A DNA stretch of 64,000 nt, taken from contig JAGCKR010000019.1 of NCBI GenBank assembly GCA_017647405.1, forward strand, positions 1,913-65,912, read 5' to 3'. This DNA comes from Alphaproteobacteria bacterium (GTDB taxonomy: Bacteria > Pseudomonadota > Alphaproteobacteria > CAAHEQ01 > UBA3637). Position 1 is the stretch's first letter. The number at the start of each line of letters is the position of its first letter. Made by a program: the position numbers and the translations under genes. Positions 1,655 through 51,267 of the stretch are shown here, in pieces. Below the pieces are notes generated by a model. The model was given only the letters and a program-made list of their open reading frames with translations, ran no database searches and was not told the DNA's origin.

Positions 1655-2997
1655 TAAAATCTCCCTATTGCTCTATATAACGTTGCTTTACTCGTTAAAA
1701 CAGAATAATAAGCCACAATCACTTCTTTTCTGGCTGTTGAAAGTTGCGAACCAGCCGTCAAAAGGTTTAAAATATCACCTTTGCCAACCTGATACGAGGC
1801 AAAAGCCACCCGTTCATTTTCTTTAGCACTCTCCAAAGCTTTTTTGCTGATATCGTATGAAGAAACGGCTGTTTTATAATTATGATATGCAGTCCACACC
1901 TCATTTTTAACTGTTTGAGTGACATCTTCTTTAGAAAAGAATGCCTGTTCTTTTTGATATTCAGCCTGCTTTATTTTATATGTATCCGAAAAACCCGTAA
2001 ACAAGGGAACAGATACATTAATACCAACCGATGACCCATATTGATATAAACTCTCTTTCCGCCAATCATCATTCATCCCCATCTTGGCCGAAAAAGAAAT
2101 TTTCGGCAATGCTGCTGCTTTTTGAACCTTCACATTGGCAACTGCCGCCTCAACATCTTTTTGACTTTTTTGAATTTCAGGGCGCAATGTTAATGCCGTT
2201 TCAATCATTTCGGAAACAGGCATATCTCCCATTTCCAACTTTGTTAAATCTTTATCATTTTTAGGCTTTAACAAATTAAACTTTGTTTCAGGCGAAACAT
2301 TTAATAACATAGCTAATTTGCCCTGACTTGTTTTGACTTGGTTTTCAGCTTGCACAACTTCTAATCTGGATTCTTCATAGCTTGTTTTTGCTAAAAGTTT
2401 ATCACTCAGGGAAACTAACCCCAATTCATAACGCTTTGAGGATTCTTCAAATGATTTCTTAAAACTGGCCTCACTTGTTTTAGCGCTTTTTAAAATTTCT
2501 TGTGCACCAAGTAATTCAAAATAGGCATTATTAATACTTAAAAATGTATCTTTCAGCAAAGCATTATATTGAAATCCTGCTGCATCCAAATATTTTTTTT
2601 CTCTTTCCAAACGTGCTGACCGCCCACCAAAATCATATATCAACCAGGACAATCCTATATTTGCCGAATAAGGATCTGTTTCAAAAGAAGAAAATTCTTC
2701 CCCATTCGAATATGTTTTCGAAAGAGATCCATCAACATTAACACTTGGCAAATATTCAGATTTTGCACTCCCCAATTCGGCTTGCGAAGTTTTAACTTGC
2801 ATATATCCCTTATTTAACATCGGATTATTGCAAAAACCGATTTCCAAAAGTTCCGGCAACCCTATTTTATTTTGAGTTATATCTTTATCAATACAGCCTT
2901 GTGGTGACTGCGTATTAAAAACAGATAAAGGATCAAACGCCAACGCATTCAACGAAACAAAAAAAACACAACCTGTTAATAACAATCTTTTTTTCAT
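1654..2997 (-). CDS. TolC-like outer membrane efflux protein.
   Basis: 447 aa with a signal peptide (MKKRLLLTGCVFFVSLNALA) and two coiled-coil/beta repeats typical of the OEP family. First gene of the OMP-MFP-ABC operon. Confidence 0.8.
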   Translation of the reverse strand: MKKRLLLTGCVFFVSLNALAFDPLSVFNTQSPQGCIDKDITQNKIGLPELLEIGFCNNPMLNKGYMQVKTSQAELGSAKSEYLPSVNVDGSLSKTYSNGEEFSSFETDPYSANIGLSWLIYDFGGRSARLEREKKYLDAAGFQYNALLKDTFLSINNAYFELLGAQEILKSAKTSEASFKKSFEESSKRYELGLVSLSDKLLAKTSYEESRLEVVQAENQVKTSQGKLAMLLNVSPETKFNLLKPKNDKDLTKLEMGDMPVSEMIETALTLRPEIQKSQKDVEAAVANVKVQKAAALPKISFSAKMGMNDDWRKESLYQYGSSVGINVSVPLFTGFSDTYKIKQAEYQKEQAFFSKEDVTQTVKNEVWTAYHNYKTAVSSYDISKKALESAKENERVAFASYQVGKGDILNLLTAGSQLSTARKEVIVAYYSVLTSKATLYRAIGRF

Positions 2998-8018: not shown

Positions 8019-8534
8019 ATGGTTTGGACACCGGAAAAAATTAAGTTATTAAAAAAATTATGGCTCAAAGGTAAAAGCACTGTTGAAATCGGCAAAGAAC
8101 TTGGCATGTCTAAAAATGCCGTTGTCGGGAAAGTACACCGGTTGGAATTAGCGGCACGCCCTTCCCCGATTAAAAAGAATCAAAAACAATCTGAACAAAA
8201 AACAAAAACAAGTAAAGAAAGTAAAACCAACAAGGTCACTTTAATGGATTTAAAATTGAATTCTTGTCGTTGGCCAATGGGTGACCCGAAAGATGAAGAC
8301 TTTCATTTTTGCGGTGCAGACACAGTAACAGGAAAGCCATATTGTTCCGAACACTGTAAAATTGCATACACATCTTTAAAAGAATTAACATTGCAAAATG
8401 CCAAAGCTAAAAAAGAAAAAGAAGAAAACAAATCTTTAGATGAAGATCTTGAAGATGATGAACTTATTAAAAAAATGGCAGAATCAAAAAAGAAACCTAA
8501 CTCTAAAACTTCTTCTACAAAAACAGAAAAATAA
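8019..8534 (+). CDS. gcrA: GcrA cell-cycle regulator.
   Basis: The N-terminus MVWTPEKIKLLKKLWLKGKSTVEIGKELGMSKNAVVGKVHRL and C-terminus CRWPMGDP...FHFCGADTVTGKPYCSEHC match the GcrA family, which is specific to alphaproteobacteria. Confidence 0.85.
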   Translation: MVWTPEKIKLLKKLWLKGKSTVEIGKELGMSKNAVVGKVHRLELAARPSPIKKNQKQSEQKTKTSKESKTNKVTLMDLKLNSCRWPMGDPKDEDFHFCGADTVTGKPYCSEHCKIAYTSLKELTLQNAKAKKEKEENKSLDEDLEDDELIKKMAESKKKPNSKTSSTKTEK

Positions 8535-11547: not shown

Positions 11548-12183
11548 CTAGCTCATTCGACCATTTGAATTATTAGAAAATCCACCAGTATTTTGAGTGA
11601 TATTAGACCCGACCGCTCTTAAAATAGCACTTAAAGATTGTTGTTCCCCATCCACAGCCATTTGAACCAATCTAACTATCCCCGGTACATTATTTAAATA
11701 TTGGACTTGTTGCTCTGTTTGAACTGATCCATTTCTTTGCATACGCACATCCGAATATTTTGAACGACGCGCTTCTGTTTCAGAATATCTTTTTCTCGTA
11801 TCAGTATCCGGATTATAGTTTCTTGCAGCACGCAGCGCTAATTCTTCCCCTCCAAGAACTGAACCATTTTCTTCTTTGGAAATGGCCATTGTCATTGCCG
11901 CTCTAAACTCTGGATCAGAAAAATCGAGCCTTGTGCTAAAATCAATATCATATCCTTGATTTCTTAAATAAGCTAAAACATCACGCGCATATTTGGAAGG
12001 ATTATTACCGCCATCGCTACTGGGAGCATACATGGCAAACATTTCCTTTAAAGTCATACGATCATATCTTCGATATAAAAGCGAATTTAAAGCCGTATAC
12101 CCCTCTTCTAACGTTGCATATTTTGCGTAACCATTGCCGGATCTGATACATCCCGGATTATTATTTTTTGTCCCAATACCCAT
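11548..12183 (-). CDS. Hypothetical protein with atypical, Ala/Arg/Gly-rich composition.
   Basis: 211 aa. The local GC content and amino-acid usage differ from the K/N/I-rich neighbours. It carries an N-terminal NNPGCIRSGNGY motif and a C-terminal tail QQSLSAILRAVGSNITQNTGGFSNNSNGRMS. No confident family assignment. Confidence 0.5.
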   Translation of the reverse strand: MGIGTKNNNPGCIRSGNGYAKYATLEEGYTALNSLLYRRYDRMTLKEMFAMYAPSSDGGNNPSKYARDVLAYLRNQGYDIDFSTRLDFSDPEFRAAMTMAISKEENGSVLGGEELALRAARNYNPDTDTRKRYSETEARRSKYSDVRMQRNGSVQTEQQVQYLNNVPGIVRLVQMAVDGEQQSLSAILRAVGSNITQNTGGFSNNSNGRMS

Positions 12184-12253: not shown

Positions 12254-13366
12254 TTATCGATCTCCTCTACTCATATCCAAAATTGGAAGAGGCTCTGTTC
12301 TATCATTTTGAGAAATTTCTTCACTGCTTGCTGCCAATGTTGCAGAAAGTCCTCCTGAAGGTGCCGGCGCTTCTCGTCGTCCAGTCATCACATCAAATGC
12401 TAAATCAGGATTATCCCTATATGCTTCTACTTCAGATGCAGAAATAAAGTGATCTCCATCAACATCTAATCTTCCCAATGCCGTTCGATATTCATCTCTA
12501 GAAACTGTTCCATCATTATTTACATCAAGCTCTTGAAATCTTTCCCCAATAACGCCGGCAGCATCATCTCCAAGTGTTCTCATTAAATTATATCTGGCAA
12601 AATTGCCATCATCATATTCTACTTCATCAATAGCTTCTCTATGATGAGCTTGAATAAAAGCTAATGCCCCACTAAGACCTCCATGCGCATCAATTTCCGA
12701 TTGAGAAATATTACCATCTTTATCCGCATCTAACAAATTTCTGGCACTATTCAGCTCTAACATATCCACACGCCCATCTCTATTTTGATCTAAATCAGCG
12801 GCAATGCCTTGTATAATCTGTTCATCTTCAACATGAAATGTTTCCTGTAAAGCTTCTCTATCAAAATCAACATCGTTACTCAGCAATTTTCTCATTTGAT
12901 AAGTTGATTGAGCCGTACTTACTGTATCTTCCAAAGTTTTTCCAAATGGAATAAGCGCACCAAAAAAACCGGAAATTTTGCCACCTATCCAAGATAATCC
13001 TTCCCCTATTTTATCCCAAAAGGACAACCTTTTTGAATTAACAATTTCAGAAAATTCATCTGTTCCAGTAGCCCCTTCAATACCACTCATCACAGAAGCA
13101 TTTAGTTGCCCTGCTTGATAACCTTCCAATACAACATCACCAACACCCGAAACAGTGTTAAATCCAGGGGTATTCCTTGCTTCTTGAACAGCACGGTTCG
13201 CAAGACCTTTCCCAATTTCAACAATATCTCCTTTTGCAAGTTTTTTAGCATCAACATCAAAACTGAGCGCTTGCGTAAAAGAGTTTCCACTCCGCGCTTG
13301 CCTCATAGCAGTCAGAGTATCCGTTTCACTTTCACCATATGCTTGATGATTTTCAGGCTTTTTCAT
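12254..13366 (-). CDS. EF-hand calcium-binding protein with four canonical EF loops.
   Basis: 370 aa. The four EF loops are DQNRDGRVDMLE, DADKDGNISQSE, DVNNDGTVSRDE and DVDGDHFISASE, all fitting D-x-[DN]-x-D-G-x-[IV]-x-x-x-E. Composition is atypical. The C-terminal tail is GGLSATLAASSEEISQND. Confidence 0.65.
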   Translation of the reverse strand: MKKPENHQAYGESETDTLTAMRQARSGNSFTQALSFDVDAKKLAKGDIVEIGKGLANRAVQEARNTPGFNTVSGVGDVVLEGYQAGQLNASVMSGIEGATGTDEFSEIVNSKRLSFWDKIGEGLSWIGGKISGFFGALIPFGKTLEDTVSTAQSTYQMRKLLSNDVDFDREALQETFHVEDEQIIQGIAADLDQNRDGRVDMLELNSARNLLDADKDGNISQSEIDAHGGLSGALAFIQAHHREAIDEVEYDDGNFARYNLMRTLGDDAAGVIGERFQELDVNNDGTVSRDEYRTALGRLDVDGDHFISASEVEAYRDNPDLAFDVMTGRREAPAPSGGLSATLAASSEEISQNDRTEPLPILDMSRGDR

Positions 13367-13438
13367 TCATCCCCCTTTCTACCTCTCTTTTTCTATTATA
13401 CAATGAAACAAGTCTTTCTGCAAGAGATATCCATAAAA

Positions 13439-14447
13439 CTATCGCCCTTGAGATTGCCTATACCCAACCATAACATCAAAAGCTGCATTTGGATCATCTT
13501 TATAAGCCGATACTTCTTCTCGAGATGCCGTACCATCTCTATTTGTATCCAAACGACCAAGCGCAGTTCGATACTCATGCCGAGAAACCTCTCCATCATT
13601 ATTCCGATCAAGTTCCTCAAATCGCTCTCCTATAACCTGAGCAGAAGCATTACCAAGCGTCCGCATTAAATTATATCTGGCAAAGTTACCTCCATCATAT
13701 TCTACTTCATCAACGGCTTCTTTATGATGCGTCTGAATAAAAGCTAATGCCCCTTCAATACCACCACGAGCATCAATTTCCGATTGAGAAACAGTACCAT
13801 CATTGTTTATATCCAATAACTTTTTTGCTGCAGAAAGCTCTAAGACATCCAACTATCCATCTTTATTTTGATCCAATAATTTTGCTGCTTTTTGCATAAG
13901 GTCCTCATCATCAACATGAATAATCTCTTGTAAATCTTCTCTGTCAAAATCAACATTAAAATTTCAGTTGCAGCATCGTAAACAACTTTTGACATATTGG
14001 TTGCATCTACCGCACTTCCAAAAAATGGAACGATTGCTCGCACTCCTGAAACAATTGACTTGCCTATCCAAGAAAAAAACGACCAAATCGCTTCAAGCGT
14101 TGTTTTACGTTCAGACGTAACCCTTTCTGATAGTTCATCAACACGCAAGGCTCCACCAACACCATACCAAAGTGAATCATGCAACTGTGATGCCTGATAT
14201 GCATTTTCACCCGCATGAACAACCCCTTTCACTCCAGCAACACCAGGGGTTCTGTTTTCAATCACGTTGATTACACCATTTCCAACAGTTTTAGCAATAG
14301 CTTCCTCATTACCTGATATCACTGCAAGCTGGTTTGTTTCAAAAGGGGTATATTCATCCAAAACAGATCTGTCTCTAGCATTTTGCATTGCTGTCACAGA
14401 TCTGTTTCGTTAAAACCGTATGCATAGTGTTCTGTTTTTTCTGTCAT
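13439..14447 (-). pseudogene. Frameshifted tandem paralog of the EF-hand protein gene.
   Basis: Three consecutive minus-strand fragments align to the intact upstream copy. The first (ATG at 14447) reads MTEKTEHYAYGFNETDL*. The second is ORF 13840..14397, TAMQNARDRS...WSFFSWIGKSIVSGVRAIVPFFG. The third is ORF 13439..13852 with EF loops DINNDGTVSQSE, DRNNDGEVSRHE and DTNRDGTASREE. The reading frame changes near 14395 and near 13850-13990. Confidence 0.6.
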
Positions 14448-14637
14448 ATTGCCCCCCTGTATTCATATACTTATTATAGTTTAACACAAAAAACTTTTTT
14501 TGTGCAAAAAAATACTTTGCTATAAAAAAATGCCCTTATACCGCCAAATTTTCAAAATTTTTCATTTTGTCTATTTTCTTTCAAGTTTTTTTGGTGTATA
14601 GTCAAAAAAACAAAACAAAAAACAAAAGGAGTTATCT

Positions 14638-15627
14638 ATGGAAGAAATTATTTTCCCTAACCAAATCAGAATGTTCAGACGTGTTCGAGGTAAAACGATG
14701 AAAAGCTTAGCTGATGCTTTAGGGTTAAGTTTATCTGCTATTTCAAAAATCGAAAAAGGATACAGACGCGTTGATGATGTTCAGTTAAAGAAAATATCTG
14801 CTTTTTTAAACTGCCCAAGTGAATCTCTTTTCGTTAGTGAACGTTCTTCTCAACCAGAAGTTATAAAAGCATGGAAACGCGAACAAGAACGCAGACAAAA
14901 AATCAACTCTGGCTCCGGTTTAAAAACATTGGGTGCTGGTTTAAGATATTTGCGTGGAGAAAAAGGGTTAACTTTATATAACGTTGCCAAGGGCGCCAAA
15001 ATGACTCTTTCGGTTTACCACCGCATTGAAATGGGCCAACGCGAGGTTGATGAAAAAACTTTTAAAGATATTGCTCATGCACTTGGTTATTCCGAAACAG
15101 ATCTCCAACTGAAAATTTATGAATTAGATATGTCTGGAGCATTAGATGAATTAAAATCTCTTGATGGAAAATCCGGTGTTTTCACCTCAAAAGGCGGATA
15201 TAATGATCTTCCAGTCAGCCGATTTATGGTTAGAACAGCCGATTCACAAGAATTTTCAGTTCCAATTTATGGCTTCCCAGCCGAAGGAGATCAAGTTTTA
15301 GTAAACAAAAAACAATCTATTGGTTCTGTTCTTTGCCCATCAACACTTTCAAATGAAAAGGATTTATATGCTATTCGGTTAAAAAATCAGGTATTAGGAC
15401 CCGCTGTTCCTGTCGATGCTGTTTTGGTTGTTGCTCCGGAAGTTAAACCAAACAAAGGAGATATCTGTGTTTTGCCAATTGAAAATGACAGAGTTAAAAT
15501 TGGCGTTTTCAGAACAAATGGGAATGATCAACCAACAATTTTTTCTCCTATTACGGAGCAAACGAATATTCTGTCAACAAATGAGCTTGAATCAATGCAT
15601 CGAGTTGTGATGATTATGATGAGCTAA
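14638..15627 (+). CDS. XRE-family transcriptional regulator with tandem HTH domains and a C-terminal S24 (LexA/CI-like) domain that may be non-catalytic.
   Basis: Two HTH_3-like segments (MKSLADALGLSLSAISKIEKG and LTLYNVAKGAKMTLSVYHRIEMG). The C-terminal beta-rich region has a GDQVLV/GDICVLPIENDRVKIGVF pattern resembling the LexA C-terminus, but with no obvious GDSM serine. An RBS AAAGGAG is upstream. Confidence 0.6.
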   Translation: MEEIIFPNQIRMFRRVRGKTMKSLADALGLSLSAISKIEKGYRRVDDVQLKKISAFLNCPSESLFVSERSSQPEVIKAWKREQERRQKINSGSGLKTLGAGLRYLRGEKGLTLYNVAKGAKMTLSVYHRIEMGQREVDEKTFKDIAHALGYSETDLQLKIYELDMSGALDELKSLDGKSGVFTSKGGYNDLPVSRFMVRTADSQEFSVPIYGFPAEGDQVLVNKKQSIGSVLCPSTLSNEKDLYAIRLKNQVLGPAVPVDAVLVVAPEVKPNKGDICVLPIENDRVKIGVFRTNGNDQPTIFSPITEQTNILSTNELESMHRVVMIMMS

Positions 15628-15668
15628 AGGGGACCGACAAAAAATCACAAAAATAAGGAGAAATCATT

Positions 15669-17126
15669 ATGACAGATACTCTAAAGGATTCATATCCAAT
15701 GCCAACAGAAGATGAGAACTTTGCTTCTCCTTCTGATTTGGCAGAACAGGAATTACCGCCTTTTCAAAATATAACGGAAGATGATATCTTTGCGCACAAC
15801 ATTGACGATGCTTTACTGCAAGAGGCAAAAAATGGCATAGATTATGATGAAAATAATTTACCGGAACGAGAATATATTCCGATGCCGACAATCTTTGAGC
15901 CAATTCCAGAAGAAGCCCAAAAAGAAATTCTTTCGAAGTTTGCCCTTAAAAAACGCGAAAAAGAAAGTTCCGTTATAAAAACAGCACAACGCCTCGTGAA
16001 CCAATTTCGTGCACTATCTGCTTTCCGTGATGATTATGTTGCCGAATATAATGAAGAACTTCTGAATGCTTCTGAAGATGTTCTCTCCTTTTTGCCAACA
16101 ATTATCGGTGGTCCGGCCGTTCGCGAATATTTGGATTACTTGTTAGCTCACAAACAACAAGGCAAAGTTTTTGATCAAGATAATATCGATTTTACTATCA
16201 CCAAAAAGCAAGGCTATCTGCCCTCACCTGATGAAGATGAAATTTATACCGCACCATTAAGAGAAAGTGGCGGTCAAAATATTTCCATTGATCATACACC
16301 GCTTATTCAACAAACACAAATTCTATCTGATACATTAAACTCTCTGAAAAAGAGTTTATCAGACCAAACAGCAGAATTAAAATCCGCTATCACGTTAATG
16401 GGTGAAGCTATTAACAGACCAATTCAAGTTAATACAGAAGGAACTCTTGCTGTTCAACCACAAGAAAGCAGCGAGCAAATTGCTAAATCAGTTCAAATTC
16501 AACGAGAAATGCTTGAAACTGCTTTTGAAAAAATGGTAACGATGCAATCAGATCTTTTCCAAAAAACTGTTGAAGAACTGTCAAAAACCGTTCAAGCGAT
16601 GCAAGAACAGTTACGTCCAACCGGTGTTGTTCGTCAAGCACTGAGCTCTTTAAAAGCGGCACAACAAACAACGAAAGAAGAACAAAACATAGACTCAACC
16701 CAAACAGACGTAAAAGAGAAAAAATCATTAAAACGACAAAATAAAAAAGAAGTTGCTAAATTACCTATAGTCGAAACAACTCAGGAAAAACAACTTGAAC
16801 CAGATTCTTTTGTGGCTCAAGAAGAACAGAATTCAAATCTCGTTGAAGAAAAAGAACCTTTAGTATCAGATGAGATCAAAGATGAAACTCTATCTTCTTT
16901 GGAAAAAGAGGCCGTAGAAACAAAAGAAACCGTTGACCCTTTTAAACCGGTGTCAAAAACAGATGTTCAAGAAAAACCTTTTTCATTGTTAGATGAGCTT
17001 GGCATTAGTGATGAATTTGATTTATATGGCGCAGACAAGAAAAATAAAACCTATTCACTACTTGATGAACTTGAAGATGATGAAATAGAAATGCTTTCAG
17101 AGTTTGATATTTCAAAACAAGATTAA
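15669..17126 (+). CDS. Hypothetical acidic protein with a coiled-coil region and C-terminal repeated SLLDEL-type acidic motifs.
   Basis: 485 aa, rich in E/D/Q. The C-terminus reads FSLLDELGISDEFDLYGADKKNKTYSLLDELEDDEIEMLSEFDI. An RBS AAGGAG is upstream. It is the first gene of a four-gene co-directional cluster. Confidence 0.55.
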   Translation: MTDTLKDSYPMPTEDENFASPSDLAEQELPPFQNITEDDIFAHNIDDALLQEAKNGIDYDENNLPEREYIPMPTIFEPIPEEAQKEILSKFALKKREKESSVIKTAQRLVNQFRALSAFRDDYVAEYNEELLNASEDVLSFLPTIIGGPAVREYLDYLLAHKQQGKVFDQDNIDFTITKKQGYLPSPDEDEIYTAPLRESGGQNISIDHTPLIQQTQILSDTLNSLKKSLSDQTAELKSAITLMGEAINRPIQVNTEGTLAVQPQESSEQIAKSVQIQREMLETAFEKMVTMQSDLFQKTVEELSKTVQAMQEQLRPTGVVRQALSSLKAAQQTTKEEQNIDSTQTDVKEKKSLKRQNKKEVAKLPIVETTQEKQLEPDSFVAQEEQNSNLVEEKEPLVSDEIKDETLSSLEKEAVETKETVDPFKPVSKTDVQEKPFSLLDELGISDEFDLYGADKKNKTYSLLDELEDDEIEMLSEFDISKQD

Positions 17127-17149
17127 GAGGATATTGGGGGACAAAAAAA

Positions 17150-18664
17150 ATGGCAAATACAACAAATTTACTAGAAGCTCTTTCCTCTTATAAAGGGGAT
17201 CAGGCGTCTCTTTCAAATTTTGTTGCAATCGCAAAACAGGAATTGGGTGATGAGTGGACATCAACCATCTATCAAACATTACCCAATTTACCAAATGGCT
17301 TAAAAGAAAAACTAGATCATGCGTTTCAATATAATGGCGCCTCACTGGCTTGGACAGAAATCCAATCTTATCTTTCCAATAAAGAGCCACTTGATATTGA
17401 ACATGTATCGGAACGTGTTGAAACATTAGACTATTGGCTCAAATTTTTTGGTAATGCCGGCGAAACTGTTATTCAACAGTTAAAGGACAAATTAGAACAA
17501 GAGAAAAAAATTCAAGAAACCATCCCTGTTAATGAAACTGACTTCATTGATGATACTTCTTTTGTTGAGGAAACTCATCCGGTTTCAGACCCATCTGAAT
17601 ACTCAGCTGATGAAGAAAATTATCCCGCTGAAAATCTCCAATCTGAGATATATGATGAAAATACATTTACTCAGGAAAGTTCAGAATACTCAACTACTGA
17701 TAATAACGAATATTATGAAGAGCCGGCAGCTGAAAATTATACTGAAGATAATTATCAACAAGAAGAATATACTGGCTATGATGAAGAATATGTGAACAAT
17801 GGCTATATATCAGAGGAATATTCCAATCAAAACGAAGAATATTATCAAGATACATATCAAGACAATGCTTATGACGATGCATCATATGATAACACCACCT
17901 ATACACAAGAAAATAATTTAGAAGAATATTCTGATCAAAATTATCAACAAGAAGAATATAGTGATAACGGTTATTATGATGATGCATATACCGATCATAG
18001 TTATGCCGAAAATGAATATATTCAAGATGCGGATGATAGCCAAAACGAAGAACAGTTCGTTTCACTTGAGGATCAAGAAGCTCCTTTTTGGCGCACACCT
18101 GTATATGAACCGCAACAGCCTGAAACAAATGAAGAATTTATGTCAAGAAAAGTATTTCACCAAATTGATTTTTTAACGGCTGTCAGATGTTGGATCAATG
18201 CGCGTTGTATTTCTCTGGGAAATAAAGAAATATACAGCTATCGACATTATGGCTTTTTAATTGATATTATGGAAGAAACAAAAAAAGATTTGGAAATTGT
18301 TTTAGGGTCACCAACTTATTATCCCGCAGTTGAACAAGTTCGACCAGATGGTATCAAACAATTACAATCATTTTTAAAATCTCTTGAAAGTGATTTAAAA
18401 ACAGCCTATGACAATTTACCAAGCGAACTGACAGATCTGATCAGTGACTCCACAAATGTTAATGATTTGAAAAAAATGCTTGGAGCTCTTGATACATCAG
18501 ATAAACCAGAACTTTTAGGCGTAGCTCCTGATGGTTTTGAAATGCTTGATGATCCTTTTGATGGAATTGATACAGAAAAAACAAAAATACCCCCTTCACA
18601 AAAAGATCAAACTGGTATACAAAAGAAAAAGACTTTTTCTTTTAACAAAAAAAATGCTTCGTAA
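17150..18664 (+). CDS. Hypothetical protein with a central Tyr/Glu/Asp/Asn-rich low-complexity region.
   Basis: 504 aa. Residues roughly 140-300 are a Y/E/D/N/Q low-complexity region (for example EEYTGYDEEYVNNGYISEEYSNQNEEYYQDTYQDNAYDD). It is flanked by ordinary N- and C-terminal domains. An RBS is upstream. Confidence 0.55.
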   Translation: MANTTNLLEALSSYKGDQASLSNFVAIAKQELGDEWTSTIYQTLPNLPNGLKEKLDHAFQYNGASLAWTEIQSYLSNKEPLDIEHVSERVETLDYWLKFFGNAGETVIQQLKDKLEQEKKIQETIPVNETDFIDDTSFVEETHPVSDPSEYSADEENYPAENLQSEIYDENTFTQESSEYSTTDNNEYYEEPAAENYTEDNYQQEEYTGYDEEYVNNGYISEEYSNQNEEYYQDTYQDNAYDDASYDNTTYTQENNLEEYSDQNYQQEEYSDNGYYDDAYTDHSYAENEYIQDADDSQNEEQFVSLEDQEAPFWRTPVYEPQQPETNEEFMSRKVFHQIDFLTAVRCWINARCISLGNKEIYSYRHYGFLIDIMEETKKDLEIVLGSPTYYPAVEQVRPDGIKQLQSFLKSLESDLKTAYDNLPSELTDLISDSTNVNDLKKMLGALDTSDKPELLGVAPDGFEMLDDPFDGIDTEKTKIPPSQKDQTGIQKKKTFSFNKKNAS

Positions 18665-18685
18665 TAAAAAAAGGGACTTAAACAA

Positions 18686-19867
18686 ATGAAAAAAATCTCC
18701 ACCATTTTTTTACTTTCAACATTTCTTATTTCAACCGGGGCTACTGCTTCATTGAATAATATTTATAGCATTATTCAACAACAGTTTACCCCTCAACAAC
18801 ACAAAGTTGAAAATTCTTATTTGAATACACTTGATTTGGAATCTCCCTATCGTTGCAAAATTGATGGCGGACACAATAAAAATATTTCAACAACCATACC
18901 GGTTAATTTAAATGATTTTAAACTGTCAAAAACAACACCGTCTGATCCAATGCCTCGTTTTGAAGTAAATGGTTATACATTTAAAAATCAGGCTCTTGAT
19001 GAAGCACTTCAAACACTTGTTGATGAAGCAGGAATTTCTGTTTACACACAAGATAGAGTTTATCCAACATTGTCTGCAAAAAATGTTTATGGTGATTTAG
19101 AATCAGTTGTAGAAGCCTTAAGTAAAAATGGTGAAGTTTTCTACTCATATAATGAGGCTGCAAAAAAACTTTACATTTCAAGACAAGCTGATTTCACCAT
19201 TTCCCTTCCAAAAAACAGATTGGTTATTTTAGGTGTATTAGATGCCTTACGTGGTGCCGGTGTTGAAAATATTGTAACCGATTGGCATCAAGGTGTTTTA
19301 CGCTTAACCCTTTCAAGAGCCGAGGAAAAAACGGTAAAAGATTTAATCGAAAGTATTCAGTCAAACGGTGAAATGCTTGTTGCCGATACTCAAACATATC
19401 AATTAAACTCTGTTGCTGATTGGAGAAAGATCATTTATGAATATGGTCACAATAATGTTTTTTCAGCAACAAACGGTTTACAAGGAAAATTACTTGTTTT
19501 AAATAATTCAGCAAAAAGTAACTCTTTTTTGAATACCGTTCAAAAAACAAGCATTGCCCACTTAACAAGTGAAGGCATCAGTGTTGTTCCAAATGGTTGG
19601 CGAATGTTTTTCGATATTTCAAAGTGTGGCATTAAAGATTCACAAGCACCTCATGTGAGTTTAAGCATAAATCCTAAAATGGATTCTGAATCAAAAATAA
19701 ATGCCCTTATTACTCTCAATGCACAACAAGGCGAAATTTCATCATTTAACGTTACAGCGTCACTAAATGATGAATTAGCGATCATTGGTATACCAAATAT
19801 TGCTGTTGGAGGCGAATTATTAATTTTGGTAAAATTAAAACTTATTCGTTTGGTAGGAGAAAATTAA
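18686..19867 (+). CDS. Hypothetical secreted (periplasmic or outer-membrane) protein.
   Basis: 393 aa with a signal peptide MKKISTIFLLSTFLISTGATA. An RBS AAGGGA is upstream. The stop overlaps the next ATG (TAATGA). Confidence 0.55.
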   Translation: MKKISTIFLLSTFLISTGATASLNNIYSIIQQQFTPQQHKVENSYLNTLDLESPYRCKIDGGHNKNISTTIPVNLNDFKLSKTTPSDPMPRFEVNGYTFKNQALDEALQTLVDEAGISVYTQDRVYPTLSAKNVYGDLESVVEALSKNGEVFYSYNEAAKKLYISRQADFTISLPKNRLVILGVLDALRGAGVENIVTDWHQGVLRLTLSRAEEKTVKDLIESIQSNGEMLVADTQTYQLNSVADWRKIIYEYGHNNVFSATNGLQGKLLVLNNSAKSNSFLNTVQKTSIAHLTSEGISVVPNGWRMFFDISKCGIKDSQAPHVSLSINPKMDSESKINALITLNAQQGEISSFNVTASLNDELAIIGIPNIAVGGELLILVKLKLIRLVGEN

Positions 19868-20694
19868 TGACAGAACAAAATAAACCCGTTAATCAACCTT
19901 CTGCAACACAACAACGAACAGGTCAACAACCTCAAACTGGCAGACCTCTTCAACAAAGGCCTCTTCAAGGCGTTCCGCCTCAAGCAAACAGGCCTCAGCA
20001 AGGAATCTCTCCCCAAGCAAACAGACCGCATCAAGGTTCTACCGCACCTATGCATAGACCAACATCACCTCAAGGTCACCCCATGCATGCCGGTACATCT
20101 CACCCTGCAAGACAAGGTCAAATGCCTTCCAGAACAGGGATTCCGCAACGACAAATGGGGCAAAGACCGTTAAACACTCCTCCATATACACATCCGCAAG
20201 GTTCTGTGAGACAAGATCAAGGTCAAATGCAAAAACAAATAAATTCTATACCACAACAACAGGAACGACCACCACAAAACCATAATAATCAGTCTTATCA
20301 GGAAACACCTATATCCCCTGCTCAATCATTTTTATCAAATTCCAGAAATTTAACATTCATATTAATTGGAGCAATTATTTTTGGAATTTTACTTGGAGCC
20401 ATGATGTTTGGTGGTTCTTCGCAACCTGTCCGCACAGGTTTACAAAATTTTGTTAAAAATCAAGATATCAGACAAAAACTTCCATTATGTGGAAGAGTTG
20501 TTAAAGGACAGGCCTGTATTCTTTATATCATGAATGCAACAAGATATGACAGATTGGCTGAAAGTTTCTTTGATGAAGCACTGAGATTAACAGAAGTTCC
20601 CAGACGAAATATTGAGTGGGCAAATCCTAAGTATGCAAAGCAACGAATTCCGCCGGGAGCTTTTGCTGAAATTTTTATTCCAAATGTCAGATAA
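19867..20694 (+). CDS. Hypothetical bitopic membrane protein with an N-terminal Pro/Gln-rich repeat region.
   Basis: 275 aa. The N-terminus has repeats such as PQANRPQQGISPQANRPHQG. One TM helix LTFILIGAIIFGILLGAMMFGG is followed by a C-terminal domain of about 95 aa. The ATG overlaps the previous stop. A rho-independent terminator follows. Confidence 0.55.
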   Translation: MTEQNKPVNQPSATQQRTGQQPQTGRPLQQRPLQGVPPQANRPQQGISPQANRPHQGSTAPMHRPTSPQGHPMHAGTSHPARQGQMPSRTGIPQRQMGQRPLNTPPYTHPQGSVRQDQGQMQKQINSIPQQQERPPQNHNNQSYQETPISPAQSFLSNSRNLTFILIGAIIFGILLGAMMFGGSSQPVRTGLQNFVKNQDIRQKLPLCGRVVKGQACILYIMNATRYDRLAESFFDEALRLTEVPRRNIEWANPKYAKQRIPPGAFAEIFIPNVR

Positions 20695-20726
20695 AAAAAA
20701 GAGGGTTCATCCCTCTTTTTTTTAAT
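20695..20726. terminator. Bidirectional rho-independent terminator.
   Basis: AAAAAAAAGAGGGTTCATCCCTCTTTTTTTT: a 7-bp GC-containing stem flanked by an A-run and a T-run, sitting between convergent genes. Confidence 0.7.
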
Positions 20727-22218
20727 CTCTTAATTTATCTTTATTTTTATTAGCAAGTCGTCCACTTCTTGCCCCCAGAGATTGCAATAATTTTTTTATT
20801 ATTTTTCCTTCCTCCGGCGTTTTAACCCTTGATAATATAATATCAAAAATTGTTTGTTTATTTTTTTTCATTTTCTGATTTATCGGAACACCAAATTCTT
20901 TCAAAAGAGAAACCATTTGAACCATTTTAAAAGGTATGGCATCCGATTTTTCAATCAAATCTAACACCCCTTCCCCTTTTTTATTTTGAAGAAACGGATC
21001 AGCACCAGATTCCAATAATAATTTCATCATTTCCAAATCATTTTTTAATACAGAAACCATTAAAGGGGTTTCACCGGCTTCATTTTCAACGTTAACATAT
21101 ATCCCCCATTCTATCAATTGTTTTAAATGATTAGCATTCCCTTTTTGGATGATCTGAAAAATGCGAGGATTTCTTTTTTCATTTTCGCACGCCTCTTTTA
21201 ATAATCTGGCAATTTCATATTTTTCATTTTGAACAGCATAATCAAGTGCTATTTTTCCACGATAATCCTTTTTCATTAAATCTGCTCCCATATCAATAAA
21301 ATAGGTTACCAATGGTTCATGCCCTTCAAAAGAAGCAATCATAAGAGGGGTTGTCCCATTTTCATCTGTAGTGTTGATATCTATTCCTCCGGTCATCATT
21401 TGCTTAACAATATCCAACTTTCCCTTAGAAACAGCACTCAAGAATCTTTTTGGTAATTTCTTATATTTTGGCGAAAGAATATTTTCTCCTAACAAATCAA
21501 TAAAGTAATTCAAAACTTCTTTATGTGATTTTTCTGCCGCTATTTCGGCGGCGGTCAATTCTCTTTTATTTTTTTTCGATACATCAGCCCCATTTTCAAC
21601 CAAATACTTCACAATATCCAATTTTCCGGCACCAGAAGCCAACATTAATGCCGTGTTTCCATCTTTACTTATCTGATTAACATCAATCCCATTGTTGAGC
21701 AATAATTTACTCATCTGGCTATACCCCAAAAAAGATGCCAACATTAAAGCATTCATACCTTCATTATTTTGATGATGAATATCAACCCCCATCTCAAGTA
21801 ATTTATTAACCAAGGCTAAATTATCTTTCTTTACAGCTAATAATAGTGCTGTCTCTCCTTCATAATTCGCCTTTTGAATATCAGCACCAGCCTGATATAA
21901 AGCATCAGCAATTTCTTTATTACCTTGCCAAACGGCGACAAGAAACGGTGTCAAGGCGCCTTTATTTTGAGCATCAATAATGGCTCCATTTTTTAATAAA
22001 AGCGTTGCAATATCTTGCGCATTTTCCCAAGAAGCCAACATCAATGGGGAATTTTCAAAATCATCTAGCTGATTGACATTTACACCAGCTTGAATTAACA
22101 GTGAAACAGCATCCAAATTTTTTTCCCTGATCGCTTTATGTAATAAAAATTCACCTTGTTCATTCGGTTCATTTAAATTTTTACCCTCAGCAATTAATCT
22201 TTTAATTTTTTCAAGCAT
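20722..22218 (-). CDS. Ankyrin-repeat protein.
   Basis: 498 aa with at least 10 tandem 33-aa ANK repeats (G-TPL-A...G---V--LL--GA--N consensus, for example DGNTALMLASGAGKLDIVKYLVENGADV). Confidence 0.85.
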   Translation of the reverse strand: MLEKIKRLIAEGKNLNEPNEQGEFLLHKAIREKNLDAVSLLIQAGVNVNQLDDFENSPLMLASWENAQDIATLLLKNGAIIDAQNKGALTPFLVAVWQGNKEIADALYQAGADIQKANYEGETALLLAVKKDNLALVNKLLEMGVDIHHQNNEGMNALMLASFLGYSQMSKLLLNNGIDVNQISKDGNTALMLASGAGKLDIVKYLVENGADVSKKNKRELTAAEIAAEKSHKEVLNYFIDLLGENILSPKYKKLPKRFLSAVSKGKLDIVKQMMTGGIDINTTDENGTTPLMIASFEGHEPLVTYFIDMGADLMKKDYRGKIALDYAVQNEKYEIARLLKEACENEKRNPRIFQIIQKGNANHLKQLIEWGIYVNVENEAGETPLMVSVLKNDLEMMKLLLESGADPFLQNKKGEGVLDLIEKSDAIPFKMVQMVSLLKEFGVPINQKMKKNKQTIFDIILSRVKTPEEGKIIKKLLQSLGARSGRLANKNKDKLRD

Positions 22219-28378: not shown

Positions 28379-31300
28379 TTAGAAACGCATTTCAAGTTTA
28401 AGCATTCCAGAGTGATCCTGATACTCTTTTCTGAATGTACCAGAATATTCAAGTTTCAAACTTGTTCGGTCAGATAATTCGGCTTCAAGACCGGTTGTAA
28501 CCGTTGAGCTCAAGCGATCCAAAGCTTCACCTTTAACAGTGTAACTCGCCCCATTAGAAAGTGTGTTGGTAACTGACATATCATCTGTAATAATATCATA
28601 ACCAAACATCACTCCTGCCATTGGGCGAACTTTAAATCCTTTAACCGTTTTCATTGGTGCATCTATATCTAATCCCAACATAACCGTCATATAGTCAGAT
28701 GATAAATTATCAACTGTTGTACCAAGTGAATCAGTATATGCTTCTTGATTCAAGCGCATATAACTTAATCCAAATTTCGGTGTCAACACAAGATTTTTAT
28801 ACGTATAATCATAACCCAATATACCTTGAAGACCTAACACATCAACATTGTAATTGGCACTTGCGCTCGTTGAAAGAATATATTTATCTTCTTCATACTG
28901 ACCACGCATATAACTTGCAATTCCATCAACAAACCAATTTGATGGTTGATATTTCAAATAAATAAAACCAGCATTGTTTTGAGCAATCGTTTCTCTGAAT
29001 GTTTGTTTCACATCGGCATGAGAATAAGAATAACCGGCACCAAGAATCAATGAATCCGTCACCTGTGTTTGAAGAGCCAAAATGCCTCCTGTTCCATTAA
29101 TCTTATAATTCCCATTTGATGAATTTTTTGTATGGGAATAAAAAGCTTTTCCCCAAACAACAGATCTTGGTGCTTCATCACCACCTGCTCTGCCAGTTTT
29201 TGCATTCATTGCTTTAACCGATTGTGTTTGAACAGCATTTGAAATTGAATTAAAATGTTCAAAACTAACTGTTTGAATAATCGGTTTTATATCACCACCA
29301 ACAGCATTCACTGACTCTACAGCCTTTTGTTTTGCCTCTTTATTATCCGATTGCAGATAATCAATCAACTCTGCTTGCATTTTGTTAAATTCCTGATTTT
29401 CAGAAGTGCCTTTATGCAAAGCAAGAATAGCCTTTGTTTCGTTTTCATCAGATCCAAAGGTTGAAGCTACCTCATTTGAATTTGTTGAAATAAAAGAATA
29501 ACGTCCATCCTTCATATCCAAAATTTGGTAATCATCGCCGTTATAATTGACTTGAGGCAATGACATAATCTCATTCATATAGAAGATTTGATATAAACCA
29601 GCTTCGAAATTATCTCCTAAATTTAAATCAAGAACAGCGGCAGCAGCTGAATTTATTTGCTGTCCTTTAACAACGGCATGTTCAGATAAGCCGTTTAACG
29701 TAACAGAAATCGTTGAACCTTCTCCTAAAGACAATTGGTTCAATGTCATTTGAACTGTTCCCAAATCAAATTGAGAGTTTGAAGAAACTTCAAAATCAGC
29801 CACAGAAATCTCTTGAACACTGTCACCTAAAATCATGTTATGACTTACCAAACTATTTTCAGTTTTAAAGGAAGATGACACATTCAAAATGGAATCATTC
29901 ATATAAAGCGTTCCATTACCATCTAACGGTTGTGTCAGTGATAAAACACTTCCCTCTTCAACGGTCATATCAGCATTATTGGTTACATTTCCAGTTAAAG
30001 AAACATCTCCTTTCACTTGAAGGGATGCTCCTAATTTATTTTCAATTGTTGCCTCTGTTTGCATATCAACAAGAGTCAACTCTTTTTCATTTGAAATTAA
30101 TCCTTGAGCCGAAACGTTTGTTAATGTTAGTTTTCCTTTATTTGAAACAGATTCGGTGACAGTTGTTTGGGTTAAAACCGCTTCCCCAAGTGAGTTGTTA
30201 TTAAGCGTGTTAATCACCATTTTTTCTGCTGTTAATACGTTATCATTATTCACAATATCTGCTTCTGAATCATCATTTAAAAAGGCAGTTCCACTATTAT
30301 TCAATGTTTGAACGGTTGAATAAGAATTAAAACTCACCTGACCCAAAGTATTATTCATTGTTTGAACTTCAGTCAAAGATGAAGCATCCGTTCCGCTAAA
30401 TAATGCTGTAGCATTTGCATTTTTATTTTCAACAGAAGAAACCATTCCACCTATCATTTGCAATTGAGCATTATTATTCACTGTTTTTAAAGAACTTTCG
30501 CCATTCACCATTAACGTTCCATCATTTGAAATTGAACCGCCAGTTCCTGTTATTTGAACATTTGTTAATGTTAACTGTGATGCATTTTCAATTGCTTTAT
30601 CTGCCGAATTATTAATTATAACATTATTAAAAATTGTTTCTCCTGATCCTAAAGCTGTTTTTAAAACAGATCCAGCATTTTTAATTGTCAAATCCTGAAC
30701 TGTTAATTTAGTTAAACTTGATTGAACATCAAACAAATCGTAACCAACCGCATTAATAACACTTTGAGTAGCATCTGTTGATTTACCATAAATATTCTTT
30801 GCTCCCTCACCTGTTTTGCCTAACCCAGCACCAACAGTATATTCAACAACTCCTGAGGTATTTCCAGAAGCTACATCCATATAAAAAGCACTGTTGCCAT
30901 TATATTGGTTGATATGAGACAATGTTTTATCATCAGTCAATCCAACAGCTTTAAATTTAACAGATTGAAGCAATGAATCTGTTTCATTTTCAACAAGTTG
31001 TGTCACATAAGAATAAGCATTTGTCTGGGCGATATAAGAAGCTAAATCCGTTGAAGGAATATTATCAAACTCCGCTTCCCCACTCAAAACTTGAACAGTA
31101 TACTCTTTATTTAAACCACTATCTGCTACCTTACTATCAACAACAAGATTAAAATGAATCCCTGTTATTTTAAAACTATCATCAGTCGCGTTAACAACAG
31201 TTAATTTATCAGATTTGGCAACAATACCAGAACCCGTTGCATCCACTGTTAAACCTAAATCAAATTTACCAATTGCTGAACCAGAAGCATTTTGAATGCT

Positions 31301-34300
31301 AACATTGTTATATCGGTTTTGATTTTCTTGCAATGAAATCGTTGAATTATTAACGAATGTATATGTTTCACCTTCATAAGAAGAACCAGTTAATTTAACT
31401 GTTCCATTGTTAATACGAACCATATCATTCGCGTTATTATTTACATCTCCCCCCATATCTGCCATGGCATAGTTACCACGAACAAATTCAATGGTAGCAT
31501 TCCCATTTTCTGCGCTGGATATAACCAATTTATTGGCATTTTGTTGTTGCGTTCCACTTGCCGTATGACGAATAATTCCATTTGATGTTGCCGTTGCACC
31601 ATATCCCAATGTAGCTCCAGAAGTTTCCAACGTTCCACCTTTAATTATATTATTAGAAGAACCCCCTTGGAAAAAATCTTCACTTGAAGCAATGGTTGTT
31701 CCAGCTGTCTGAATAAACTGACCAGAAAAAGTGTTATTCTTTGCACTTGTTCCCTTAATTAAATTCAATTTACCAACATTGTTAATTATACCTGTTCCAG
31801 TAACTCCATTCAATTGAACTGTTTCAGAACCTTGAATATTTAACACATCTGAAACTGTTGTAACCCCTGATACAACAAGTTCATCACCAGCCACATTTGA
31901 AAGTAATGTCACCTCACCAGAAATAATATTTAATGTTTTTTGAATATCCGTTCCATTTAATGAGGCTAAACTATTTGATCCTGCATTATTTTCAAATGAT
32001 TCAATTGATCCACCTGTAACAGTCAATTCACCTGAATTAACAACACTTTTCATCGACACATTATTCGTTGCTGTCAATGAACCGCTATTTGAAACGCTAT
32101 CAAAAGTCACACCATCAGCTTTAACAACACCTGCATTTGTTGTGTTACCAGAAATAATTACCTTATCTGACGCATTTGCTTTCAAATCAACTGTTCCACC
32201 ATTAACGGTTAATGTATTCAAATCTGTTCCGTTTAATGTGGCTAAACTGTTTGATCCTGCATTATTTTCTAATGTTTCAATTGATCCACCTGTAACCAAT
32301 AATGAAGAATTATTTCTTACACCTAACAAAGAGCTGTTATTCGATATTAAACGTCCTGTATTAACAATTTCACCTTTTGTGCCTGTTACAGAAACATTTG
32401 TTAAAGAAAGTGTTGCTCCATTTTGAATGACAATATTATTATCATCACCAGAATTATTGATTATCACATTATTAAATTCAGCATTTCCTGATCCTTGTTC
32501 ACTAGACAAAACCAAACCAGCATTTTCAATTTTCAAATCCTTAACCAACAGAGTTGTTGTTTGATTTTCACCACTTGTATCTTGAACAAGATTAAACATA
32601 TTATATGTATTTGCATTAATAATGCTTACCGGTGTTGTTGATGAATCAGTTGGAGCCTCCCCAGATATTATCTTTTGACCATATCCTGTTACACCTAAAT
32701 CACCATTCTCCATTACATACGTTTGCGAAGAGGAAGGAATAAAAGAACTATTCCCGTCAAAAACATTTACTGCATACAGATCATCACTTGCCCGAATGAT
32801 GTTCTTCAAAATAATTGATTGCCCATTATCAGACAAATCTATATTATATTGAAATCCATTTGTAAAGGCAAAATCAGGGGCAGAAATAAACTGTGCATTG
32901 CCTTTTAATACATCTATTTGATATGTTCCACCATCAGCAAAAAGTCCCAAATCAAAACCATAATTAATTAATTCAGGATTTAATGTAAATGTATATGATG
33001 TATCAGATGTTAATGTATCAGATAAGAAACTAATTGTTCCATTATTTTCTTGCATCAGGACATTAAAAGCAAAAACAGCCCCACTACCAGACATATTTTG
33101 AAATTTAATGTCTTCGATAGCATTTTCATCTGTTCTAGCCTCAACAATCGAATTAGCATCAAACTGATATGTTTCACCCAAATAACTGGTTCCATAATCA
33201 CTTCTTCCTTTAACCTGCACCGTAGCATTTTGAAAGCTGATTATATCTTCACTTGTTCCAGTACCCATATCTGAAAACATTTGGTAATTGCCATTAACAA
33301 ACGTTATACTGGCAGATGATGAAGCATCACTATCCCCATATAATTCAAGCGCATTGGCGTTTACAATATTGTATCCTGTATTGGTTTCAACTGCCGTATG
33401 CGTCAAAGAACCATTTTTTGAAACAGCAGCATAATAATTTAATTTTTCACCTTTTGTGACTAATTGTCCACCATAAATGTTGTTTGTGCCTTTAAAAAAT
33501 TGAGTACTATTAGCATAAGTTGTTCCATTATATTGATTAAATGTTCCAGTATATCCGGCGTTGTTTGAATGAGACACGCCAAGTAATGCCGTTTGCGTTA
33601 AATTTGCGTTAAAATAGTCTTTTGAAGACAAGAATAATGAACCTGCTGAATATTTGTTTATTATTCCACTTCCAGATATTCCACCTTCAGTTATCAATTC
33701 ATCAGCTGTTGTTTGAACTGCTGTTGATTCAGCATCTCCAAAATTTAAAACAACATTACCTCCTGACATATAGATATCATTTTTTTGTCCATTAGCCATA
33801 TTTCCAGAAAATGAAACACCACCTTTAAATGAAATGACACCAGAGGCATTTGAAATTGCCCCTCCATTTCCCGTTGCCGTGTTTCCAACAAAAGAAACTG
33901 AATTTAAAAATGTGATAACTGCTCCAGAATTGGCTTCAATAGCGCCGCCACCACCATTTGTTGCTTTATTATTTTCAAAAATGGTTTGCCCGGCATTAAA
34001 ATCAATCAATCCTTTTGTATAAATCGCACCACCATACAACGCCTGATTTCCAGAAAACTTTGTGTATCCATTTGTAATCTCTTGATCATTAACTGTAACA
34101 GTGCTACCAGTAAATGTTGTTTGCGATTCTCTTGCTGCATGCAACGCACCACCCCATTTTGACGCCTGGTTGTTTAAAAACTCAGCATTGTTCACAGTTG
34201 CTGTTCCTTGGTTATAAATCGCACCACCGCCCATATCTAAACCCGTTGCTTTTGAAATATTTTCAGAAAAAGAAGCATTGGTTAAAAACATTTTTCCACT

Positions 34301-50939: not shown

Positions 50940-51267
50940 AACAACGCCCTCCCTTTTTATTACACTATATCTATTATACCATAAAAATTGAAATTTTGTA
51001 AATTTTTTTGTCATAACAACAAAAATACTCACAAGAGCTAAAAGCACTTCATAACCCTTCAACTACACTATAATCGATATTTTTTTGATGTTTTTTTATA
51101 GCAAGTAGATTTTTTTATTTCCGGCCTTTTCTATAAAAAAACCTTTAAAAGACATAAAAGATATTAGACAAAGTGACCCATTAATTCACCAACACCAGAG
51201 GTGTGGCATTAGAAGCGTTGTAAAGTAATAGATACGAAGAAACTTTAAATGAGCTGTGTACACTGCG

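Follow-up and report, generated by a model that had tools for sequence, protein, structure and literature searches.

A regulator and four coupled genes, one of them encoding a secretin homologue, as a candidate accessory module of a type IV secretion system in uncultured gut Alphaproteobacteria

We analyzed an operon of one regulator gene and four further genes, here called g1 to g4, in a 64,000 nt stretch of DNA from an uncultured alphaproteobacterium (positions 1,913 to 65,912 of contig JAGCKR010000019.1, assembly GCA_017647405.1; 'the window' in the following), which is part of a 73-kb metagenomic contig. In our judgement the operon probably, with modest confidence, encodes a regulator together with four proteins that form an accessory envelope module of a VirB-type type IV secretion system (T4SS) in an uncultured lineage of gut Alphaproteobacteria, because its relatives in other genomes lie amid VirB6, VirB10 and VirB11 genes. 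Names such as 'Azospirillum sp. UMGS63' suggest that the lineage may belong to gut orders of the RF32 or Rs-D84 type. The regulator (14638–15627, 329 aa) is followed on the same forward strand by g1 (15669–17126, 485 aa), g2 (17150–18664, 504 aa), g3 (18686–19867, 393 aa) and g4 (19867–20694, 275 aa). The intergenic gaps are, in order, 41, 23 and 21 nt, and each start has a GGAG-type ribosome-binding site before it, the one of g2 being weaker. These coordinates and gap lengths bear out a first-pass annotation, made from the sequence alone, which had described five closely spaced open reading frames (ORFs) on one strand; its overlap of the last pair as ATGA was wrong, as g3 and g4 share a single base in TAATG.

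Conservation of the operon and its neighbours in related genomes

A scan of one genome per species gave 111 genomes with a relative of the operon, from which 80 loci were kept; with four loci fetched earlier and the window itself we analyzed 85 loci, in which L004 and L039 as well as L006 and L064 are the same sequences twice. For each locus we called ORFs, searched them with hidden Markov models (HMMs) of the five proteins and clustered the neighbouring ORFs. All relatives are uncultured metagenome-assembled genomes (MAGs) from the gut, derived from sheep, deer, yak, buffalo, goat, rabbit and human samples. We observed that the order regulator-g1-g2-g3-g4 is kept in 85 of 85 loci wherever the contig allows, down to 30% identity, and that the regulator of five loci is found immediately after g4 in the opposite orientation. 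Because the ORFs are intact in more than 100 species-level genomes, with invariant residues and an unchanged order, we conclude that purifying selection maintains the five genes as one inherited unit. The first-pass annotation had taken missing co-conservation of the four genes as grounds to abandon its idea of a coupled system, and on this point its expectation of a common unit stood.

Next to the module we found a sixth family, which occurs as three to four tandem paralogues in 45 of the 85 loci, directly upstream of the regulator or just downstream. Its members are polytopic membrane proteins of 400–1300 aa with an invariant CWxC motif, and 9 of 40 tested members match the Pfam family TrbL/VirB6 (PF04610, best E-value 4.3e-7); a profile of this VirB6-like family found no match in the PDB. 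The regulator always stands between the module and the VirB6 array. TrbI/VirB10 (E-values 1e-30 to 1e-33) and a VirB11-type ATPase flank the module in 14 of the 85 loci. These VirB10 proteins are enlarged to 1500–2455 aa by beta-flower repeats, and the best match of the 322-aa ATPase, over its full length, is to the VirB11 model TIGR02788 (E-value about 1e-40), far above any pilus ATPase model. At four loci (L072, L076, L077 and L080) the order is VirB10-VirB11-g1-g2-g3-g4, followed by the regulator on the opposite strand and then by four VirB6 genes. The module is thus often contiguous with VirB6, VirB10 and VirB11 genes. The other recurrent neighbours that we checked are housekeeping genes (RimI, TsaB), and no further secretion-related family recurs.

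Several points weigh against assigning the module to a T4SS. The link is purely genomic and, for this genome, is drawn through its relatives. No T4SS gene was found on the 73-kb contig of the window, where VirB6 was sought in the whole window and at both contig ends; the earlier suggestion to look for a T4SS elsewhere in the genome was apt for the relatives, in which T4SS genes adjoin the module, and gave nothing on this contig. About one third of the loci with enough flanking sequence also have no adjacent T4SS genes, so that the linkage is frequent and not universal. None of the loci showed VirB4, VirD4, VirB8, VirB9, VirB2 or VirB3 within 10 kb on either side of the module. Most TrbL matches are weak and come from only 9 of the 40 members. 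In addition, g1, g2 and g4 show no detectable relative in two loci that combine a T4SS with a type IVb pilus, nor in Pfam, NCBIfam or the PDB. The role of g3 as a ring or collar, all protein–protein contacts and the repressor function of the regulator, which are taken up below, are inferred.

The same observations bear on a different explanation, in which the module is a T4SS-independent, secretin-based envelope machine that is often parked beside a T4SS. Here g3 would make up a pore in the outer membrane that has no gate, with g4 as its partner in the inner membrane and g1 and g2 as cytoplasmic components or cargo. The five genes do occur together without a nearby T4SS in the window and in about 19 loci with at least 4 kb of upstream sequence, they have their own regulator, their own conserved promoter element and their own terminator, and g1, g2 and g4 are without T4SS relatives. 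However, in the 85 loci neither an ATPase nor a pilin, a platform protein or any other source of energy accompanies the module as a conserved gene, its sole recurrent neighbours apart from housekeeping genes are VirB6, VirB10 and VirB11, and the secretin domain of g3 is without segments that are conserved in all functional pores. We therefore consider such a free-standing machine unlikely. The first-pass annotation had proposed a candidate undescribed system; a free-standing system without known relatives does not hold, since g3 belongs to the secretin superfamily and the relatives embed the module among VirB6, VirB10 and VirB11 genes.

Some features of the neighbouring T4SS genes are unusual in themselves. 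The VirB10/TrbI homologues carry up to 18 beta-flower units inserted before TrbI, and a second beta-flower protein is encoded alongside (L080:990–5705, L052:12773–20140, L073:12813–17417 and 17420–20866); we know of no described VirB10 with such a giant beta-flower architecture. At L085:1382–5386 a VirB6/TrbL paralogue of 1334 aa carries an M23 peptidase domain at its N-terminus and, at its C-terminus, a VgrG3-like peptidoglycan-hydrolase domain, which suggests built-in cell-wall cutting or an antibacterial role of the T4SS. We also recognized that the records of L033, L061 and L065 assign the cluster-bearing contigs to 'uncultured Lactobacillales' or 'Holdemanella biformis', which is probably due to binning contamination or mislabelling in public MAGs.

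g3, a shortened member of the secretin superfamily

Secretins occur in type II and type III secretion systems, in type IV pili and in filamentous phages. By profile and by fold, g3 is an exported, shortened homologue of these proteins, consisting of the domains N0 and N1 and a truncated secretin domain. A database search gave 110 full-length homologues, all unnamed, down to 31% identity. When we searched 1.84 billion representative proteins exhaustively with the g3 profile, we obtained 242 matches; below the family itself lies a second tier of proteins of 450–850 aa (E-values 1e-18 to 1e-8), of which 10 out of 10 tested carry Pfam Secretin, some of them together with STN and a C-terminal TcpQ. 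Alignment of the g3 family with the secretin family by hhalign covered 332 columns and g3 residues 68–393 (99.9% probability, E-value 3.9e-31), and a tblastn search with g3 directly matched a plasmid secretin (E-value 9e-6). The structural comparison agrees with this. An AlphaFold2 model built on 51 homologues reached a mean predicted local distance difference test (pLDDT) score of 84.8 and a predicted template modelling (pTM) score of 0.78, and in a Foldseek search of the PDB its first 47 matches were all secretins, with BfpB as the best (E-value 1.4e-10); the TM-scores are low (0.15–0.28), as is to be expected for a monomer model compared with subunits from assembled rings. From these data we conclude that g3 belongs to the secretin superfamily.

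The Secretin domain of g3 can be recognized only from profile to profile and by fold, and not by a family model: the direct Pfam scan gave no Secretin match even at an E-value of up to 1, NCBIfam likewise gave none, and a profile search of PDB sequences with the g3 family gave no match or coiled-coil noise only. The earlier statement that none of the four genes has a recognisable domain is therefore correct for direct scans and incorrect for g3. Remote homology to a known pathway had been named in the same annotation as a finding that would overturn it; we observed such homology for one of the four genes, namely g3, and not for the other three.

Compared with other secretins, g3 retains the periplasmic ring-building domains of the superfamily (PF00263), N0 (STN-like) and N1, and has lost parts of the pore. 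In the alignment a gap of about 19 columns follows right after FDISKCG, at the gate-1 position, and between the lip region and the last strand, ELLILVKLKLIR, g3 has about 45 residues fewer than GspD or BfpB. Overall the pore domain is about 65 residues short, in the gate regions, and a complete double-walled barrel including the gate hairpins was not found in the alignment. From what is known of GspD we take the missing parts to be the distal hairpin of gate 1 and the stretch around gate 2 and the VPLLGDIP motif. Within the family C57 and C314 are invariant, and some clades have a lipobox in place of a plain signal peptide. Secretins form outer-membrane pores of 12–15 subunits; g3, which was modelled as a monomer, may form a ring through N0 and N1.

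Among solved structures the best relative of the second-tier secretins is again BfpB (E-value 7.8e-37), and on plasmids they match PilN-family type IVb secretins and the secretin of a conjugative Rhodoferax plasmid. Two of the second-tier secretins were placed on contigs. On the first, the secretin belongs to a T4SS gene set consisting of VirB3, VirB4, VirB8, VirB9/CagX, the secretin, a 180-aa protein, a T2SSE ATPase, T2SSF, TrbI and VirB11; on the second, its neighbours are pilin-like ORFs and genes for an ATPase, a platform protein, TraU and TrbC. The Rhodoferax plasmid has the same arrangement of secretin, ATPase and platform genes. On this plasmid (Rhodoferax ferrireducens NC_007901, L091:12569–15953) we also noticed two tandem secretin-like genes before the pilus ATPase and platform genes, encoding a 'PulD-like protein' of 471 aa and a secretin of 622 aa, and the search with g3 gave matches at two sites there. 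The nearest relatives of g3 are thus lipoprotein secretins of type IVb pili on conjugative elements, and because its nearest true secretins live in such loci we conclude that g3 descends from a conjugation-associated type IVb pilus secretin.

The likeness to BfpB of enteropathogenic Escherichia coli, PilN of the IncI plasmid R64 and TcpC extends over N0, N1 and the secretin domain, and includes, for BfpB and PilN, the lipobox found in some g3 clades and a gene for a small envelope protein that comes next after the secretin gene. In contrast to these secretins, g3 has the shortened pore domain described above and scores under the thresholds of Pfam Secretin and NCBIfam, and it is not accompanied by the other parts of a type IVb pilus: among the conserved neighbours in the 85 loci we found no pilin, no prepilin peptidase, no PilB/PilQ-type ATPase and no platform protein, and the one ATPase nearby is of the VirB11 type. 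HMMs of g1, g2, g4 and the regulator gave no significant match against all genes of the two loci with a T4SS and a type IVb pilus, so that g4 cannot be recognized as the PilP-like protein encoded after canonical secretins there. Together with the truncated secretin domain, the origin of g3 from pili of conjugative elements could also mean that the operon is what is left of a decaying conjugative type IVb (thin) pilus and has little function today, or none. This would be hard to reconcile with ORFs that stay intact in more than 100 species-level genomes down to 30% identity, keeping a fixed order and invariant residues including a Cys pair, nor is any pilin, prepilin peptidase, PilQ-type ATPase or platform gene left nearby, and we regard a relic as very improbable.

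The regulator and the proteins g1, g2 and g4

The regulator contains two Pfam HTH_3 domains (helix-turn-helix, HTH; E-value 5e-22) and a partial match to Peptidase_S24 (E-value 0.0013), which lies below the cut-off, in agreement with the tandem-HTH, S24-like architecture proposed earlier. It also shows a weak NCBIfam match to TrbA, the repressor of IncP plasmids (E-value 8e-5). With a median identity of 59% over the full length it is the best-conserved gene of the operon, compared to 32–41% over partial lengths for g1–g4. In an alignment by eye, the window has KNQV at the position of the S24 motif GDSM, and L004 and L005 have TTQT and SDNE, respectively. The S24-like domain thus appears to be without the catalytic Ser nucleophile, at a site that is not conserved among homologues, and on inspection by eye of the C-terminal domain we did not find the Ser-Lys dyad of S24 repressors of the LexA/CI type.

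Upstream of the regulator we found a conserved DNA element, ATTTTGTCTATTTTC ... GTGTATAGT (14564–14602, forward strand), which sits about 40–75 nt before the start of the gene and has one exact copy in the window. Among 67 loci, the region upstream of the regulator contains the 10-mer TTTTGTCTAT in 51 and GTGTATAGT in 41, and of all 65 copies of TTTGTCTAT in the 1.38 Mb of locus sequence 51 fall in this region. The element is kept across species whose proteins share only about 50–60% identity, and because intergenic DNA is conserved across such divergent genomes we conclude that it is probably a functional promoter or operator. More distant clades carry a 14-bp palindrome, ATTTGTACACAAAT, upstream of the regulator instead. 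We also considered an operator of a wider regulon and rejected this, as the element is essentially limited to the regulator's own promoter. We infer that the regulator itself binds the element and acts as a repressor resembling TrbA. As a TrbA/CI-like repressor with tandem HTH domains, working at the conserved element before its own gene, it would control how far the operon is expressed and also the virB6 array in genomes where the two adjoin. With TrbA and repressors of the CI/LexA type it shares an XRE-type HTH followed by a C-terminal S24-like domain, and its position is suited to the control of transfer-type genes; it differs from them in having two HTH domains in tandem, apparently no catalytic Ser, and an unusually high conservation.

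Phage repressor families in PHROGs also match the regulator, and the filamentous-phage protein pIV was among the structural matches. Both would fit a remnant of a filamentous phage or prophage with a CI-like repressor and a pIV-like secretin. This explanation seems to us extremely unlikely, as g1–g4 have no PHROG matches and no relatives in IMG/VR, genes for Zot/pI, coat proteins and an integrase are absent, and the flanking genes are chromosomal housekeeping genes that differ between genomes, with an unremarkable GC content. A prophage or inovirus was rejected on the same PHROGs and IMG/VR results. A defence system was rejected as well, PADLOC matches being limited to the HTH domains of the regulator.

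In direct scans of Pfam, NCBIfam, PADLOC and PHROGs none of g1–g4 gave a significant match, and PDB profile searches with the families of g1, g2 and g4 gave no match or coiled-coil noise only. The two products g1 and g2 are acidic, predicted cytoplasmic proteins with neither a signal peptide nor a transmembrane (TM) segment, and both consist of conserved helical cores with highly variable acidic linkers between them. In g1 a helical core (about residues 100–190) is followed by a variable coiled-coil or low-complexity region and by a short acidic C-terminal motif, usually YSE[IV]IE or E[IY]E[IM]LSEFD (about 17040–17126 in the window); homologues of 175–879 aa occupy the position in 79 loci. In g2 helical domains at about residues 1–130 and 310–460 enclose a variable linker rich in Tyr and Glu, and the protein ends in a basic tail, VQRKxSFSxxxK, which is found throughout the family (about 18600–18664). 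It is present in 85 of 85 loci with lengths of 158–886 aa, and 37 homologues in a large database are all unnamed. The terminal motifs of both proteins could be docking or translocation signals. The low-complexity segments emphasized in the first-pass annotation, namely the SLLDEL repeat, the Tyr/Glu-rich core and the Pro/Gln repeat, are indeed present; they turned out to be lineage-specific linkers, and conservation lies in other segments.

The last protein, g4, is a predicted bitopic inner-membrane protein with a disordered, Pro/Gln-rich cytoplasmic N-terminus, a single TM helix (159–181 in the AlphaFold2 model) and a periplasmic domain of about 90 aa with two invariant Cys residues and a beta-alpha-alpha-beta fold. 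According to the model this domain is possibly LysM-like and disulfide-bearing. We examined whether g4 could be VirB8 or VirB10, and rejected both, since its periplasmic part is too small and has the wrong fold compared to the NTF2-like VirB8 or the TrbI barrel. In its bitopic topology and its possibly LysM-like beta-alpha-alpha-beta domain it resembles secretin-anchoring proteins (GspB/OutB, TsaP, ExeA/B). Such envelope proteins, among them GspB/OutB (PMC9239104) and TsaP (bioRxiv 10.1101/2020.05.29.123786), are encoded alongside a secretin or act on it, and connect it to the inner membrane or to peptidoglycan. The TM helix of g4 and the signal peptide of g3 agree with the locations predicted earlier, and the proposal of a multi-compartment set is likewise supported, as the proteins are distributed over the cytoplasm, the inner membrane, and either the periplasm or the outer membrane.

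In Agrobacterium and Legionella, charged tails at the C-terminus act as signals for the T4SS. The basic tail of g2 and the acidic motif of g1, both conserved, would fit a further explanation, in which g1 and g2 would be conserved substrates or effectors of the T4SS, or one effector and its chaperone, with genes next to those of the structural proteins g3 and g4. Their acidic, largely disordered sequences and very variable lengths are in line with this. Their strict position upstream of g3 and their conserved folded cores are, however, more typical of machine parts, and no toxin or enzyme domain was found in g1 or g2 in the Pfam, NCBIfam and PDB searches. We judge it distinctly unlikely that the two are substrates.

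Proposed assembly, related systems and genomic context

Returning to the accessory T4SS module, its parts could work together as follows. After export g3 would oligomerize through the ring-building domains N0 and N1 and, with its truncated and apparently gate-less secretin domain, form a periplasmic or outer-membrane ring that collars or extends the T4SS outer-membrane core, unlike an autonomous gated pore. g4, encoded right after g3 with presumed translational coupling, would tie this ring to the inner membrane and, through its disulfide-stabilized, possibly LysM-like domain, perhaps to peptidoglycan, and its proline-rich cytoplasmic tail may recruit the acidic proteins g1 and g2 as cytoplasmic scaffolds or adaptors, or as early substrates. 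The outer-membrane cores of T4SS are built of VirB7, VirB9 and VirB10. It is conceivable, although we have clear doubts, that the module marks a new architectural class of T4SS, a secretin/T4SS hybrid in which gate-less g3 would replace or cap the VirB7/VirB9 core, g4, g1 and g2 would be extra core subunits, and the machine would also contain multicopy VirB6 and a giant beta-flower VirB10.

For a ring of this kind there is precedent in the N0 rings of DotD of Legionella (PDB 6x62) and VirB7 of Xanthomonas, the latter an N0 domain in the outer-membrane complex of a T4SS (PMC3093366). Both differ from g3 in having N0 only, whereas g3 keeps N1 and the remnant of a secretin domain and clearly derives from a full secretin. 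A second comparison is with the rvh T4SS of Rickettsiales, of which multicopy RvhB6 is a hallmark (PMC11077975). As in rvh, the genes considered here are chromosomal and scattered and include tandem multicopy VirB6-like genes, and as in rvh hosts they occur in a low-GC alphaproteobacterium rich in ankyrin-repeat and autotransporter proteins. In contrast, a secretin-like gene and equivalents of g1, g2 and g4 are not described for rvh, VirB10 has huge beta-flower inserts here, and the host encodes GcrA and pyruvate formate-lyase and lives in guts.

In the literature on RF32 and gut Alphaproteobacteria with T4SS, VirB6 or secretins we found no description of the cluster, and the database names of its homologues are all 'hypothetical protein'. 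What is added is a borrowed, remodelled secretin and three orphan families to a known machine class, the T4SS, and not a categorically new system. If the assignment is true, a secretin homologue fixed beside VirB6, VirB10 and VirB11 would mean that one envelope machine has borrowed the outer-membrane part of another, three unnamed protein families would join the parts list of the T4SS, and multicopy VirB6 would reach beyond Rickettsiales to abundant uncultured gut Alphaproteobacteria of ruminants, rabbits and humans. The operon with its regulator and operator would also offer a handle on what these bacteria inject and into whom, and the ankyrin-repeat proteins encoded nearby would be obvious substrate candidates.

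Directly 3' of g4 the operon is closed by a bidirectional intrinsic terminator (20693–20723), a hairpin of the form AAAAAAAAGAGGG-TTCAT-CCCTCTTTTTTTT flanked by A and T runs, which was read in the sequence and folded. The strong terminator noted earlier was confirmed by its folding energy of -18.3 kcal/mol (z -6.3), which none of 200 shuffles reached, and a simple terminator scan did not pick up this hairpin. It is common to the operon and a convergent ankyrin-repeat gene (20722–22218). The GC content is about 35% throughout the window with no compositional break at the operon, and the flanks contain housekeeping genes (PolA, LptG, AspS, RmuC, LptB, PFK). The GcrA gene lies at 8019–8534 and, together with NCBI names of identical proteins such as 'MAG: Alphaproteobacteria bacterium', supports the placement in the Alphaproteobacteria.

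The window further encodes several proteins of types that are typical of host interaction or effectors and are candidate T4SS substrates or adhesins: two large ankyrin-repeat proteins of 498 and about 960 aa (20722–22218 and 48171–51062), a Chlam_PMP-like protein of 2497 aa (28379–35872) and an autotransporter of 935 aa (45247–48054). Just upstream of the operon (12254–14397, reverse strand, and 11548–12183) lie genes for two paralogous EF-hand/dockerin-like proteins, on the strand opposite to the operon, and for a 211-aa protein without a family match that adjoins them. One copy of the paralogues has 370 aa; the second is split into overlapping ORFs of 137 and about 182–185 aa, with the same ORF calls in several assemblies. 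Their site corresponds to the position of the VirB6 array in relatives. At the left edge of the window (542–2997 and the adjoining contig) we observed genes for a TolC-like OEP, a membrane-fusion protein and MacB-type ATP-binding cassette proteins, an efflux or type I secretion-like set which bears on the earlier question of whether a type I secretion system is encoded in this genome.

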